Shown here: positions 1 to 4,311 of the stretch, piece after piece
How the letters are laid out: the number at the start of each line of letters is the position of its first letter
Numbering within the stretch: the first letter of the stretch is position 1
From: a virus
Lineage: Duplodnaviria > Heunggongvirae > Uroviricota > Caudoviricetes
Virus record (IMG/VR): IMGVR_UViG_2778261574_000004
Span: 1 to 4,311 of that record
Reading direction: 5' to 3' (one strand)
Length of the DNA: 4,311 nucleotides
Notes under the pieces: model-generated
Told to the model about the DNA's origin: nothing
The model's input: the letters and a program-made list of their open reading frames with translations, nothing else
Database searches by the model: none
Position numbers and translations under genes: made by a program

Positions 1-17
1 ACCTTGGTTTAAGAGAA
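1..17. other. Left DNA-invertase crossover site (hix/gix/cix-like), truncated by the window start; only the inner half-site GGTTTAAGAGAA (6..17), core TT (4-5) and 3 nt of the outer half are present
   Basis: Positions 1..17 ACCTTGGTTTAAGAGAA are the reverse complement of the inner half and core of the right site (4276..4292). The core dinucleotide is TT here versus AA at the right site, i.e. identical in inverted orientation as needed for inversion by a serine invertase. Confidence 0.6.
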
Positions 18-182
18 CTCGGTACCAGCGGTGAAAAGATCCCCTTGTTGAGCACGGCTAACACATGGAGTGCGCGCCAGACTTTCAACGGCGGGATCAC
101 CGGGGCACTGACAGGGAACGCCGATACCGCGACGAAATTGAAAACAGCCAGAAACATTAATGGCGTCAGGTTCGATGGTTCT
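1..182. repeat. Inverted repeat block A, left copy (pairs with 4111..4292)
   Basis: Direct comparison with the reverse complement of 4111..4292 gives 180/182 identical. The two mismatches (pos 45 T vs C, pos 107 A vs G) are both synonymous (Leu TTG/CTG, Ala GCA/GCG). Identity stops abruptly after the codons for FDGS (182). Confidence 0.95.
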
Positions 183-1565
183 ACGAACATTTCGATACCA
201 ACAATTACGTCTAGAGGACGCGTTACTGCGCTTACCGGTACAACGCAAGGTGCTGCTACTGGATTGCAGATGTATGAGGCATACAACAATGGTTATCCAA
301 CGACTTACGGGAATGTACTTCACCTGAAGGGAGCAGCATCCACTGGTGAAGGCGAGTTGCTCATTGGCTGGAGTGGCACAAATGGCGCTCATGCACCTGC
401 TTTCATTCGATCCAAAAGAGATAGCACTGCTGCGGCATGGTCCGAATGGGCGCAGATCTATACGTCAAAAGATTCAGTTCCCGGCGTCAATGCTAAAGGG
501 GATCAGGATACCTCTGGTAATGCGGCTACAGCGACTAAATTGCAGACAGCATGTACTATTAACGGTGTCTCGTTTGATGGTTCTAAAAATATTGAGCTAA
601 CGGCGGAAGATTTAAATCTTGAGCAAACCGTAGAATTAGCCGCTGGATCATTGCAGAAAAACCAGAACGGCGCAGATATTCCAAACAAAGATAAATTTAC
701 GCAAACAATAGGTGCTTGCCGCTCTTTTCATGGTGCTATTAGCACAGGTGCAGGAAACTGGACGACGGCACAATTGATTGAATGGCTGGATTCTCAAGGG
801 GCATTCAATCACCCATACTGGATGTGCAAATGTTCATGGTCATACGGCAATAATAAAATTATTACCGATACTGGCTGTGGAACTATTCATCTTGCAGGTT
901 GCGTTATTGAGGTTATGGGTAATAAAGGTGCCATGACCATCCGTGTAACAACACCAAGCACTTCCACCGGAGGTGGCACCACTAATGCGCAATTTACTTA
1001 TATAAACCATGGCGCAGATTACGCCCCAGGCTGGCGGCGCGACTACAGCACAAAAAACCAGCAACCTGCATTTGCTTTAGGGCAGACAGGAAGCACAGTT
1101 GGAAATGACAAAGCTGTTGGATGGAACTCAATTAGCGGGGTTTATAACGCAAATATTGGTGGAGCATCTACGTTAATTCTTCATTTTTATATGGGAGCTG
1201 GTAGTTGTCCGGCTGTTCAGTTCCGCGTGAATTATAAGAACGGCGGTATTTATTATCGTTCAGCGCGTGATGGTTATGGATTTGAGGCTGACTGGTCAGA
1301 GTTTTACACCACGACCCGCAAACCCTCTGCGGGAGATGTTGGTGCATACACGCAGGCAGAATGTAACTCAAGGTTTATTACAGGTATTCGCCTTGGCGGT
1401 CTGTCATCTGTTCAGACATGGAATGGTCCCGGCTGGTCTGACAGGTCAGGTTATGTCGTTACGGGTTCAGTTAACGGAAACCGTGATGAATTGATTGATA
1501 CAACTCAGGCAAGGCCAATTCAGTATTGCATTAATGGGACGTGGTATAACGCGGGGAGTATTTAA
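3..1565 (+). CDS. Tail fibre protein, variable C-terminal part A (5'-partial; frame enters from upstream of the window through the left crossover site; first in-window start candidate is TTG at 45; stop TAA 1563..1565)
   Basis: Long ORF (506 aa from TTG 45) whose frame stays open back to position 3 ([22 protein letters not shown]...). Two copies of a fibre-repeat-like motif GNAxTATKLxTAxxINGVxFDGS (nt 114..182 and 516..584), which I recall from lambdoid/P1/Mu-type side tail fibres. Gly/Asn/Thr/Ser-rich beta-type composition; C-terminal tip motif IRLGG...INGTWYN shared with the minus-strand fibre; immediately followed by a tfa gene. Confidence 0.88.
   Translation, partial: LGLRELGTSGEKIPLLSTANTWSARQTFNGGITGALTGNADTATKLKTARNINGVRFDGSTNISIPTITSRGRVTALTGTTQGAATGLQMYEAYNNGYPTTYGNVLHLKGAASTGEGELLIGWSGTNGAHAPAFIRSKRDSTAAAWSEWAQIYTSKDSVPGVNAKGDQDTSGNAATATKLQTACTINGVSFDGSKNIELTAEDLNLEQTVELAAGSLQKNQNGADIPNKDKFTQTIGACRSFHGAISTGAGNWTTAQLIEWLDSQGAFNHPYWMCKCSWSYGNNKIITDTGCGTIHLAGCVIEVMGNKGAMTIRVTTPSTSTGGGTTNAQFTYINHGADYAPGWRRDYSTKNQQPAFALGQTGSTVGNDKAVGWNSISGVYNANIGGASTLILHFYMGAGSCPAVQFRVNYKNGGIYYRSARDGYGFEADWSEFYTTTRKPSAGDVGAYTQAECNSRFITGIRLGGLSSVQTWNGPGWSDRSGYVVTGSVNGNRDELIDTTQARPIQYCINGTWYNAGSI
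438..619. repeat. Inverted repeat block B, left copy (pairs with 3677..3858)
   Basis: Reverse complement of 3677..3858 matches 438..619 with about 5 mismatches (about 97 percent), including perfect runs of 40-66 bp. Encodes WSEWAQ(I/V)[14 protein letters not shown](D/N)[16 protein letters not shown](C/R)[22 protein letters not shown] in both fibre genes. Mapping is left x to right 4296-x. Confidence 0.95.
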
Positions 1566-1567
1566 CG

Positions 1568-2101
1568 ATGATGCACTTAAAAAACATTACTGCTGGCAAC
1601 CCTAAAACAAAAGAGCAATACCAGCTAACAAAGCAATTTAACATCAAATGGCTTTATTCAGATGATGGAAAAAACTGGTATGAGGAACAAAAGAATTTCC
1701 AGCCAGACACTTTGAAAATGGTCTATGACCATAACGGCGTTATTATTTGTATTGAAAAGGATGTTTCAGCAATTAATCCAGAAGGCGCAAGCGTCGTTGA
1801 ATTACCTAATATTACAGCAAATCGCCGTGCTGACATTTCTGGTAAATGGATGTTCAAAGATGGCGTAGTGATAAAGCGAACTTATACCGAGGAAGAACAG
1901 AGGCAACAAGCTGAAAATGAAAAGCAAAGCCTATTGCAACTTGTCAGGGATAAAACCCAACTGTGGGACTCACAGCTACGGCTGGGCATCATTTCCGATG
2001 AGAATAAACAGAAATTAACCGCGTGGATGCTATATGCGCAGAAAGTAGAATCTACAGATACCTCCATCCTGCCAGTAACGTTTCCCGAACAACCAGAATG
2101 A
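1568..2101 (+). CDS. tfa: Tail fibre assembly protein (Tfa/U-type chaperone), partner of fibre A
   Basis: ATG at 1568 (second ATG at 1571) lies 2 nt after the fibre stop, with GGGGAG (1553..1558) as Shine-Dalgarno. 177 aa. C-terminus ...LTAWMLYAQKVESTDTS...PEQPE resembles the conserved Tfa C-terminal motif (recalled lambda Tfa ...LEAWKKYRVLLNRVDTS...). N-terminal ~100 aa about 70 percent identical to the minus-strand paralog. Confidence 0.85.
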   Translation: MMHLKNITAGNPKTKEQYQLTKQFNIKWLYSDDGKNWYEEQKNFQPDTLKMVYDHNGVIICIEKDVSAINPEGASVVELPNITANRRADISGKWMFKDGVVIKRTYTEEEQRQQAENEKQSLLQLVRDKTQLWDSQLRLGIISDENKQKLTAWMLYAQKVESTDTSILPVTFPEQPE

Positions 2102-2104
2102 GAA

Positions 2105-2131
2105 AAGGCCCGTTATCGGGCCTTATTTTTT
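2105..2131. terminator. Bidirectional rho-independent terminator between the convergent tfa genes
   Basis: Perfect 8-bp stem AAGGCCCG (2105..2112) / CGGGCCTT (2117..2124) with 4-nt loop TTAT and 6 GC pairs; followed on + by ATTTTTT (2125..2131) and preceded by GAAAA (giving a U-tract on the minus strand). Sits between the + tfa stop (2099..2101) and the - tfa stop (2130..2132). Confidence 0.7.
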
Positions 2132-2657
2132 ACTCAGGTTTTTGTGGCCATTCTGGCTTTGCCGTATCCACGCGGCTTACAAGAACGCTGTAGCGTTCCC
2201 ATGCTTCCAGTCGGCTGTGGTCCTCATCCGTTGCCATATTCAGCCTTACTGCACGCTCTAGTAGTTGAATGACTGATTCAGCATCAGCAAGAAGTCTAGC
2301 TTTCTGATTTTCTACCTGCTGCTGTAATTCCTCTGCCGTATAAATACGTTTAATAACTGCGCCATCCTTAAACATCCAGTTACCTGAAATGTCGGCACGT
2401 CGGTTAGCAGTAATATCCGGCACTTCAACAACACTTAATCCATCCGGTCTGATAGCTGTTACATCCTTTTCCACATAGCGGATGATGTTATCTTTGTCAT
2501 ACGCTAATTTTATCGTGTCATCCTGGAAGTTCTTTTGTTCCTCATACCAGTTTTTACCGTCTTCTGTAAAAAACCAGATGACATCAAAATGTTTCGTCAG
2601 CTGGTATTGCTCAACTGTTTTTGGATTACCCGCTGTTATATTGATCAAATGCTGCAT
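2130..2657 (-). CDS. tfa: Tail fibre assembly protein (Tfa/U-type chaperone), partner of fibre B; start taken at the ATG (revcomp of 2655..2657) 4 nt after the fibre B stop, not the upstream start at 2855 in the ORF track
   Basis: The 241-aa track ORF overlaps the fibre B 3' end by about 200 nt; the internal Met ([14 protein letters not shown]...) aligns with the start of the plus-strand tfa ([14 protein letters not shown]...). C-terminus ...[27 protein letters not shown] matches the recalled Tfa family C-terminal motif well. Confidence 0.85.
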
Positions 2658-2661
2658 AAAT

Positions 2662-4311
2662 TTAAACCTGTGCCACGTTATACCATGTTCCGTTAATATA
2701 TTTCTGTACCGGTCTATAATATACGCCACCAATGTTATCGGCAGAGTTTGAACCGGTATCCTGGACAATAATGCCGGAATAAACGCAACCTGACGGTGCC
2801 TGATGGGTCCATGTTGTGCCATTATTTGCAGGTTTGTATGATGATGCGCCACCAAGCCTGATATCCCTTACATAGCGGGAATCAAAGTTGCCATAATTAC
2901 CTGGGATAATTTGCGAACCGCAAAGCCAGTTACCGTTATTATCCATGTACGCCTGACCATCGGTGCCATTGGCTGTCCTTGAGTTATTAATCATGTAGAT
3001 GCCAAATTGCTTGTTCCCCAGTCCACCTATCATGAACTTGCGGTCAACGTGATTCTGGCGAAGCAACGCCTGAGCGCTATCTGTATTAACTATATTTTTC
3101 CCAAAGATAGCGTTGTTATCGCGCATCTGAATCCACATACCATTACTGCTGTTAATAGCAAAACGGTCTGAAAGCGTCTCTCCTGAAACATTAAGTCCGC
3201 GTCCCATAGAAACTGCGCCAGTGGCATTATTAATCCATAATGGTCTTAATCCGTTATAAGTCCCCATGTTGTCACCGGAGTTTGTCAACATGAAGTATGT
3301 ATTTGAACCATCATTACGGATAAAAAACCCGTAATTACCATAAGCAATACGGAGGCCGTTTGCTGATTTTGATATTACTTCGCCATTTATAATGGCGTTG
3401 ATAAGAACATACAAAGCATCCCATTTAAGATTCATCAGGTCTTTTGTTGTAGTGCTTTGTTTGCTTCTCCATTTGAAATATTCATTGCCGTTGTCGCCTG
3501 TTTCAAACCACATGAATGAATCAGTATCGCTGTCGGCATCATTTTTAAAACCAATCTTCGCCCAATCAGTATTTCGAATCCAGGCAAGGATTGAGTCATT
3601 TTCAAAAGTAAGCCCGCCGGACAAGATATCGCCTGAACGCTGAACGGCATTATTTGCTTTATTAATGAATTCCTGTAAATTTAAATCTTCCGCCGTTAGC
3701 TCAATATTTTTAGAACCATCAAACGAGACACCGTTAATAGTACGTGCTGTCTGCAATTTAGTCGCTGTAGCCGCATTACCAGAGGTGTCCTGATTCCCTT
3801 TAGCATTGACGCCGGGAACTGAATCTTTTGACGTATAGACCTGCGCCCATTCAGACCAGTTGGCAGAATCAGTATCCCGCCGCGAACGGATATGTACTGG
3901 CGCATGGTCACCACTCGTGCCACTCCAGCCAATGAATAACTCACCTTCGCCAGCAGCGGTGGCACCTTTAAGGTGAAGCACATTGCCATAGGGGGAAGGG
4001 TAGCCATTGTTGTATGCCTCATACAGCTGAATCCCGGATGTTCCCTGTGCATTCGCCTCCAAGGCCGTTACGCGACCGCGTGATACCAGAGTATTGATAT
4101 TAATGTCACCAGAACCATCGAACCTGACGCCATTAATGTTTCTGGCTGTTTTCAATTTCGTCGCGGTATCGGCGTTCCCTGTCAGCGCCCCGGTGATCCC
4201 GCCGTTGAAAGTCTGGCGCGCACTCCATGTGTTAGCCGTGCTCAACAGGGGGATCTTTTCACCGCTGGTACCGAGTTCTCTTAAACCAAGGTTTTTGCGA
4301 ATTGCCTCCGT
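2662..4311 (-). CDS. Tail fibre protein, alternative variable C-terminal part B (5'-partial or silent copy; frame open from the window end through the right crossover site; first in-segment start candidate is TTG at 4245..4243; stop TAA revcomp 2662..2664)
   Basis: 527 aa from TTG. The first ~46 aa are identical to fibre A, the next ~85 aa about 70 percent identical, the next ~60 aa nearly identical (block B), and the remaining ~330 aa unrelated except the C-terminal tip (IRLGG...[11 protein letters not shown]). Same two fibre-repeat motifs (revcomp coordinates 4111..4179 and 3712..3780). The frame upstream of 4245 reads ...[22 protein letters not shown] with no stop to 4311. Confidence 0.88.
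3677..3858. repeat. Inverted repeat block B, right copy
   Basis: See left copy. The 3-nt offset difference from block A reflects one extra codon in the diverged patch on the plus-strand gene (255 vs 252 nt). Confidence 0.95.
4111..4292. repeat. Inverted repeat block A, right copy
   Basis: Reverse complement matches 1..182 with 2 mismatches; mapping is left x to right 4293-x. Confidence 0.95.
4276..4301. other. Right DNA-invertase crossover site, 26 bp: TTCTCTTAAACC-AA-GGTTTTTGCGAA (imperfect dyad around a 2-bp core)
   Basis: Seen in sequence: two 12-bp imperfectly inverted half-sites flank a central AA at 4288-4289. From memory it closely resembles the Hin/Gin/Cin/Pin site family (recalled hixL: TTCTTGAAAACC AA GGTTTTTGATAA). 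It sits exactly at the outer boundary of inverted-repeat block A. Confidence 0.75.

Follow-up and report, generated by a model that had tools for sequence, protein, structure and literature searches.

The 4,311 nucleotides of phage DNA analysed here, referred to below as the window, carry two convergent sets of tail-fibre genes between inverted ends. The question that they raise is whether these ends are the crossover sites of a DNA inversion switch, and which invertase would act on them. We put the probability at about 90% that the window is the invertible C segment of a P1-like IncY phage-plasmid and that the sequences at its ends are crossover sites for a serine invertase of the Din family. 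The window aligns with the C segment of phage P1 at ~89% identity across 96% of its length and also matches the C and G segments of D6, P7, Mu, and D108. It differs at only two nucleotides, positions 125 and 151, from pRHB23-C01_3, a 95.9-kb IncY P1-like phage-plasmid of E. fergusonii; a search of complete E. coli genomes with the window gave a best full-length match of 92%, leaving pRHB23-C01_3 as the nearest record.

On the plus strand, an open reading frame at 3-1565 encodes the expressed copy of the variable C-terminal part of the tail fibre (89% identical to P1 Sv' at the protein level), followed at 1568-2101 by a gene for a U'-like tail-fibre assembly chaperone (Pfam Caudo_TAP, E = 2e-36). 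The minus strand carries the alternative, silent variable fibre part at 2662-4290, whose product is 90% identical to P1 Sv, and a U-like assembly chaperone gene at 2130-2657 (Caudo_TAP, E = 7e-34), which is silent in this orientation. Between the convergent gene sets lies a bidirectional terminator hairpin (2105-2124). The plus-strand set is assigned as the expressed one because in pRHB23-C01_3 the annotated fibre coding sequence (L001 1644-4565) has its start 1.36 kb before the left end of the window and continues uninterrupted across the left site. The window's longest inverted repeat pairs a left arm at 1-191 with a right arm at 4102-4292 at 97% identity, with the first mismatch between the arms at 45/4248. 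Past a 3-bp register shift, the repeat resumes between 267-626 and 3670-4029 at 83% identity.

At the right end, window positions 4276-4301 read TTCTCTTAAACC-AA-GGTTTTTGCGAA, a 26-bp plus-strand sequence with a 12-2-12 layout. It consists of an inner half-site (4276-4287) that is identical to the P1 cix inner half, the core dinucleotide AA (4288-4289) that is common to cix, hix, and pix, and an outer half-site (4290-4301) that differs from the P1 cixL outer half, GGTTTAGGATTG. The two 12-bp halves are dyad-symmetric at 9 of 12 positions, and the preliminary description of this stretch as a 12+2+12 imperfect dyad is borne out. A scan of the whole window with a permissive Din consensus, TTNTCNNAAACCNNGGTTTNNGANAA, in which three mismatches at most were tolerated, gave one match, 4276-4301, with a single mismatch, and no match was found in 200 dinucleotide-preserving shuffles of the window. 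The same scoring returned exactly two sites, both at the segment ends, in P1, Mu, SJ46, vB_YpM_39, and the 10-kb locus of pRHB23-C01_3.

Compared with P1 cixL, the right site matches at 20 of 26 positions; the inner half and core are the same, and 6 of the 12 positions of the outer half differ. The outer half GGTTTTTGCGAA recurs unchanged as the invertase-proximal one in SJ46 and in ~48-kb phage-plasmids of the vB_YpM_39 type, and the closest published outer half is that of hix, GGTTTTTGATAA, with two mismatches (Din-site table, PMC3241671). The same compilation tabulates the Din crossover sites together with a palindromic 'dix' consensus row (PMC3241671), and the right site agrees with the positions that this row specifies (TTC, AAAC, core A, GTTT, and GAA), on our own reading of a row that was retrieved partly garbled, with 11 characters per 12-bp half; with the same proviso, the right outer half fits the GAA end of the consensus at least as well as cixL does. 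The right site is a hybrid, in which the inner half and core of P1 cixL are joined to a foreign outer half. A scan of a genome collection for the outer half with its flank gave one match, in a WOR-3 MAG, which lacks a Din-like inner half and was judged to be due to chance.

The left end of the window is the counterpart of the right one. Positions 1-17 (ACCTTGGTTTAAGAGAA) are the exact reverse complement of 4276-4292, confirming the earlier proposal of a matching inner half-site and a TT core at this edge. They comprise, on the plus strand, the last 3 bp (ACC, 1-3) of the outer half-site, the core TT (4-5), which is the crossover point and supplies the last two bases of a CTT leucine codon in the expressed fibre gene, and the inner half-site GGTTTAAGAGAA (6-17), identical to the inner half of both cixL and cixR of P1. 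The remaining 9 bp of the outer half, TTATCCAAT, lie directly upstream of the window and were taken from the pRHB23-C01_3 plasmid (NZ_CP057567.1), a molecule other than the window's own that differs from it by 2 nt. Extension to the left had been set beforehand as a test, and these bases complete the 26-bp dyad, TTATCCAATACC-TT-GGTTTAAGAGAA (L001 2992-3017), with symmetry at 8 of 12 positions. The completed site is identical to P1 cixR (L003 6248-6273) at 26 of 26 positions. The two sites are inverted relative to each other with matching cores, TT at 4-5 and AA at 4288-4289, and are the only consensus-like sites in the 10-kb locus of pRHB23-C01_3. The proposal that the segment ends are hix/gix/cix-like Din sites therefore holds, with a left site equal to cixR throughout and a right site that shares the inner half and core of cixL. 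A strict assignment of the sites as P1 cix, with the two of them equal to cixL and cixR, was rejected because the cixL outer half and cin have been replaced; only the left site equals its P1 counterpart.

Three further statements of the preliminary description stand with small corrections. The P1 record annotates the cix sites, the C segment, and a crossover point at the equivalent central dinucleotide; by this GenBank convention, the segment boundaries fall between the core bases, at window 4/5 and 4288/4289, and the recombining unit that had been given as 4-4289 is correct to within one base. The long inverted repeat had been said to take in only the inner half-sites, and it in fact continues for 3 bp past each core (ACC/GGT). 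The cores had also been placed within the fibre reading frame, in the codons N-L-G, with the frame preserved by inversion. The frame is indeed kept: the plus-strand fibre codons start at window position 3, the minus-strand fibre frame reads L-G-L-R-E from the right core, and at both ends the core forms the last two bases of a CTT (Leu) codon, after which 40 residues are identical between the ends. Since both cores share this codon phase, inversion preserves the reading frame. The expressed left junction, however, reads CAA TAC CTT GGT TTA AGA GAA (Q-Y-L-G-L-R-E) and is thus Y-L-G; N-L-G (AAC CTT GGT) belongs to the silent minus-strand right end, where the upstream codons are outer half-site and intergenic DNA.

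Plasmids in which the segment is found in either orientation locate the exchange. The plasmids pRHB23-C01_3 and pRHB23-C02_3, whose hosts are two isolates from one farm sample, are identical in the segment itself and in the 3 kb to either side of it, but they carry the segment in opposite orientations. The nearest difference between the repeat arms, at 45/4248, followed the segment when it flipped, whereas the nearest one between the outer halves (window positions 0 and 4293) kept its place in the flanking DNA. This puts the exchange between window positions 0 and 45, in the outermost 44 bp, which contain the site. The two orientations could in part reflect mixed populations that were collapsed by assembly, and inversion would still be implied. 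The 44-bp interval takes up about a quarter of the near-identical arm, so homologous exchange at that end would be consistent with it. A suspicion that the 48.7-kb plasmid co-resident in the RHB23-C01 and RHB23-C02 isolates had flipped as well was not borne out, as its orientation is the same in both.

A second flipped pair narrows the interval further. SJ46 and plasmid p14076B are both 103,445 bp long, and a 3.2-kb segment is flipped between them. They share the invertase protein accession and both outer half-sites with the window's element, and their segment is a different one. Their inner half-sites differ from each other at one position (TTCTCC versus TTCGCC), and this polymorphism travelled with the segment, as the outer-half difference stayed in place. 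This leaves for the exchange only 13 bp, ACC TT GGTTTAGG, with the core at their centre. The repeat around the SJ46 site measures ~37 bp and is imperfect, and homologous recombination is not credible there because the repeat is so short and imperfect. Strand exchange is accordingly placed inside the site, at the core, by the flipped pairs, with the 13-bp figure obtained from SJ46, a sister element whose segment is another one. Junctions at other points of the long repeats, which had been named beforehand as the mark of homologous exchange, were not seen at the available resolution of 44 bp here and 13 bp in SJ46. Homologous recombination in the long repeats is disfavoured for the window's element, and in SJ46 it is effectively excluded.

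The invertase gene lies beyond the window and was read from pRHB23-C01_3, which differs from the window by 2 nt. An intact gene for a 193-residue serine invertase (L001 7366-7947) starts 65 bp past the right site. It runs outward from the segment, an arrangement shared with gin in Mu, whereas cin of P1 runs into cixL. The encoded protein contains the Pfam domains Resolvase and HTH_7 and matches the sequence of the Gin crystal structure 3uj3 with E = 1e-71. Its identity is 87% with the invertase of vB_YpM_39, 61% with Gin, and 58% with Cin. The catalytic serine sits in a conserved YxRVST motif, and the C-terminal DNA-binding domain is almost identical to that of Gin. An NCBIfam scan of the protein gave nothing but sub-threshold matches to other serine recombinases, and a sigma-70 scan between the right site and the start of the invertase gene gave no convincing promoter.

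Alignments anchored on the right core display a sharp change of relationship at this point. On the inner side, the element is identical to P1 at 69 of 70 positions, and on the outer side at 21 of 90, the random level. Against SJ46, the inner side matches at 25 of 70 positions and the outer side at 90 of 90; against vB_YpM_39, the corresponding values are 25 of 70 and 85 of 90. As the match to P1 ends and that to SJ46 and vB_YpM_39 begins at the core, the outer half-site is part of a foreign block. This block extends over ~777 bp, from the core to L001 8071, where homology to P1 resumes at cin nucleotide 234; it takes the place of the 3' 327 bp of cin, and a 74-codon fragment of that gene remains past the block. 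Rather than an intact cin reading into cixL, the element has an invertase gene of the opposite orientation filling the gap. The same module is present in SJ46, where it is annotated as 'pin', and in eight plasmid records. It has thus already been sequenced and loosely annotated, and the inversion mechanism itself is textbook knowledge; for the hybrid site or the replacement of cin, no description was found in the searchable literature, which is thin for the P1 and p15B work of the 1980s-90s.

The Din systems depend on Fis, on negative supercoiling, and on an inverted-repeat configuration of the sites, and their cis-acting recombinational enhancer, usually located towards the 5' end of the invertase gene, contains a pair of Fis sites. 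By analogy with Hin, Gin, and Cin, from which we infer the dimer binding, the synapsis with Fis and the enhancer, the staggered cut, and the rotation, an invertase dimer would bind each site through its C-terminal helix-turn-helix domain, and on the supercoiled plasmid the two sites would synapse with an enhancer occupied by Fis. The four strands would then all be cut via the active-site serine with a 2-bp stagger at the AA/TT core, and one pair of subunits would rotate by 180 degrees before religation, flipping ~4.28 kb. The constant 5' part of the fibre gene S, upstream of the window, would in this way be joined in frame to either 3' part, because a CTT codon contains the core and the two ends are nearly identical over their first ~190 bp. 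Each alternative 3' part has its own assembly chaperone, and inversion would be predicted to switch receptor specificity. For the enhancer there are two candidates. The cin remnant keeps the stretch annotated as the enhancer in P1, with 67 of 72 positions identical, and the 5' part of the new invertase gene contains weak Fis-like motifs at nucleotides 34 and 82, 48 bp apart and at the same positions as in gin. Such motifs are too degenerate to call, and a simple motif scan of the invertase 5' regions gave no convincing enhancer.

How the segment comes to be flipped could be explained otherwise. The dyads at its ends might be relics of an inactivated Cin system, with inversion brought about by RecA-dependent homologous recombination in the long repeats. 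The reduction of cin to a 74-codon fragment would fit such a history, arms that are 97% identical over 191 bp are long enough for RecA, and the isogenic pair locates the junction no more finely than to 44 bp. An intact Din invertase gene adjoins the right site, however, and the crossover fell in the outermost 44 bp rather than in the other ~150 bp of near-identity or in the 360 bp at 83%. In SJ46, moreover, with the same invertase and the same outer halves, the exchange is limited to 13 bp inside the site, and the repeat around it is an imperfect one of ~37 bp. We regard homologous recombination as the source of the inversions as improbable. That the 26-bp dyad is a chance feature of coding sequence has nothing in its favour apart from the short length of the dyad, and it is refuted by the absence of matches in the 200 shuffles, by the identity to cix, and by the location of the dyad, which coincides exactly with the tips of the inverted repeat and with the breakpoints of homology; its probability is negligible.

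It could also be argued that the right site is a non-functional hybrid and that the switch is frozen in the lineage of the window, in which case the inversions in its relatives would be rare or catalysed in trans, for example by the 48.7-kb phage-plasmid. The right outer half differs from that of cixL at 6 of 12 positions, and the host strains also contain a further Din system, whose invertase is 87% identical to this one. Din invertases are known to cross-complement one another. The hybrid outer half is nevertheless the native partner of this type of invertase in three element families and, as far as the partly garbled row can be read, fits the GAA end of 'dix' no worse than cixL does. Two independent flipped pairs are known, and the invertase gene in cis is intact. 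A frozen switch seems to us improbable as well, slightly more so than inversion by RecA. The preferred reading thus remains a Din-type switch whose crossover sites are the two 26-bp sequences at the segment ends.

On this reading of the sites and of the neighbouring gene, the host-range switch is probably still active despite a 'truncated' cin, with the replacement invertase doing the job. A survey of P1-like plasmids took truncated cin genes as a likely loss of the switch (PMC6906374), and in the present lineage an inference of a dead switch from a truncated cin would be wrong. The sites also define precisely where the invertible fibre segment begins and ends for a group of P1-like phage-plasmids from Escherichia and Salmonella, which often carry resistance genes.

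The sharp homology breakpoints at the cores make a concrete and testable case for invertase sites as joints of module exchange in the evolution of tail fibres. In each of the comparisons the breakpoints lie a few bases at most from the cores. Homology to P1 ends, and homology to the module of SJ46 and vB_YpM_39 begins, within a stretch of 6 bp at the core; SJ46 and the window's element have identical flanks around unrelated segments, with the breakpoints at both cores; and one and the same invertase-proximal half-site occurs with at least five distinct inner halves and with either a GA or an AA core. The host strains today hold both the P1-like element and a 48.7-kb element with this module. 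We tentatively suggest, at somewhat less than even odds, that the crossover sites may also serve as joints for swaps of whole modules between unrelated phage-plasmids. If this is true, Din invertases would now and then recombine the sites of separate elements resident in the same cell, fibre cassettes or invertase modules would be exchanged, and the hybrid right site would be a fossil of such an exchange between elements. Ordinary recombination, with functional sites then favoured by selection, would account for the pattern of breakpoints equally well.

Comparison with known systems sets the locus between several relatives. One group is that of the ~48-kb phage-plasmids, namely Yersinia phage vB_YpM_39, pRHB23-C01_4, and the plasmid of E. 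coli ATCC 25922. Their invertase-proximal outer half is likewise GGTTTTTGCGAA, and identity amounts to ~94% in the 78 bp that follow and to 87% in the invertase. They differ from the window's element in a GA core, in inner halves of the Mu type, in their replicon, and in an invertase C-terminus that is not Gin-like. The Salmonella sites hixL and hixR, on which Hin acts, have the same 12-2-12 layout and AA core, with an outer half two positions away from the one in the window. In the hix system, the invertase gene lies inside the segment, and the switch controls a promoter, not alternative 3' ends of a gene. SJ46, a P1-like phage of Salmonella, has an identical invertase protein (WP_001749380.1), and both of its outer half-sites, its AA core, and both flanks including the cin remnant are the same as in the window's element. 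It differs in having an unrelated 3.2-kb segment, the inner half-sites TTCTCCTAAACC and TTCGCCTAAACC, and a repeat of only ~37 bp, which is imperfect.

P1 offers a parallel on the side of the segment and Mu on the side of the invertase. With cixL and cixR of P1, the sites of Cin, the element shares the gene content Sv', U', U, Sv at ~89% nucleotide identity, the junction codon, and the 40 residues that follow the junction, which are identical. It differs from P1 at the right site, where cixL is TTCTCTTAAACC AA GGTTTAGGATTG and the outer half found here is GGTTTTTGCGAA; in cin, which is intact in P1 and here is cut at about nucleotide 234, with an invertase gene of the opposite orientation in its place; and in the repeats, which are perfect over ~590 bp in P1 and here have diverged to 97% for 191 bp and then 83%. 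With Mu, the host of gixL, gixR, and gin, the layout is held in common: a constant fibre part Sc, the segment, and then an invertase gene reading outward that starts ~65 bp past the outer half-site. The DNA 3' of the invertase gene resembles the gin-com region of Mu at 81%, but Mu has a GA/TC core, inner halves TTCCTGTAAACC, and short repeats, and Gin is only 61% identical overall. Taken as a whole, the locus is the C-segment switch of P1 in a P1 relative, working on its invertase side like the G segment of Mu with Gin.

The element to which the window belongs and Salmonella phage SJ46 share identical flanks, with 90 of 90 positions matching beside each crossover site (L001 2992-7301, on E. 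fergusonii plasmid pRHB23-C01_3, versus L005 2777-6026). The invertible segments enclosed by these flanks are unrelated, measuring 3.2 kb in SJ46 and 4.3 kb in the window's element, and the breakpoints lie at both cores. The whole cassette has been replaced between the two elements.

Directly right of the window, the replacement block region (L001 7295-8304; about 4295-5304 in window coordinates) contains a block of ~777 bp that has taken the place of cin nt 235-561 and the outer half of cixL. A 74-codon remnant of cin is left on the minus strand, and the enhancer annotated in P1 is still present (67/72 identical). The invertase region of Yersinia phage vB_YpM_39 displays 90% identity to L001 7282-7874, and the 3' end of Mu gin together with the gin-com intergenic region displays 81% identity to L001 7706-8069; the block is a mosaic in its own right. 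On the minus strand of an IMG/VR viral contig, L009, around position 640, the invertase module of this block is joined to the inner half TTCTCGTAAACC; the core there is GA, and a stretch similar to the P1-type 'GTGCCGAG' junction comes before it. The contig thus carries another hybrid combination.

For the isolate carrying the flipped segment, the RefSeq record contains a CDS called 'tail fiber protein' (L002 2922-4565), whose start lies within the invertase gene, on the other strand, and which continues across the site. This CDS is almost certainly an annotation artefact, arising from the open frame that lies upstream of the silent fibre end.

The E. fergusonii strains carrying the window's relative also harbor a phage-plasmid of 48.7 kb. 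This second element likewise bears an invertible fibre segment, whose orientation is equal in both isolates. Its crossover sites (L015 1929-1954 and 5001-5026; L016 1923-1948 and 4995-5020) have GA/TC cores, yet their invertase-proximal outer half, GGTTTTTGCGAA, is identical to that of the window's element, and the invertases share 87% identity. Because this phage-plasmid has GA/TC-core sites and an invertase of its own, two Din systems with unlike cores are co-resident in one strain.

Within the window, the convergent chaperone genes are separated by a hairpin at 2105-2124, with a perfect 8-bp stem and A and T runs on either side, which scores as a terminator on the plus and minus strands alike. 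Positions 114-191 and 516-593 form an internal direct repeat of 78 nt (73% identity; mirrored at 3703-3780 and 4111-4179) that encodes the repeated fibre motif GNA(D/A)TATKL(K/Q)TA..ING(V)(R/S)FDGS, present in two copies per fibre variant.

Positions 125 (T/C) and 151 (G/T) are the sole differences between the window and pRHB23-C01_3, and both window alleles agree with the opposite repeat arm. Gene conversion between the arms would fit this agreement, as would merely a different lineage. The arms themselves (1-626 versus 3670-4292) form an inverted repeat with 97% identity over 191 bp, followed by a stretch that has diverged and shifts the register by 3 bp, and then by 83% identity over 360 bp. 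In contrast, the repeat of P1 is perfect over about 590 bp; with its repeat degraded by comparison, the window's two fibre variants therefore diverge much nearer the junction than those of P1.
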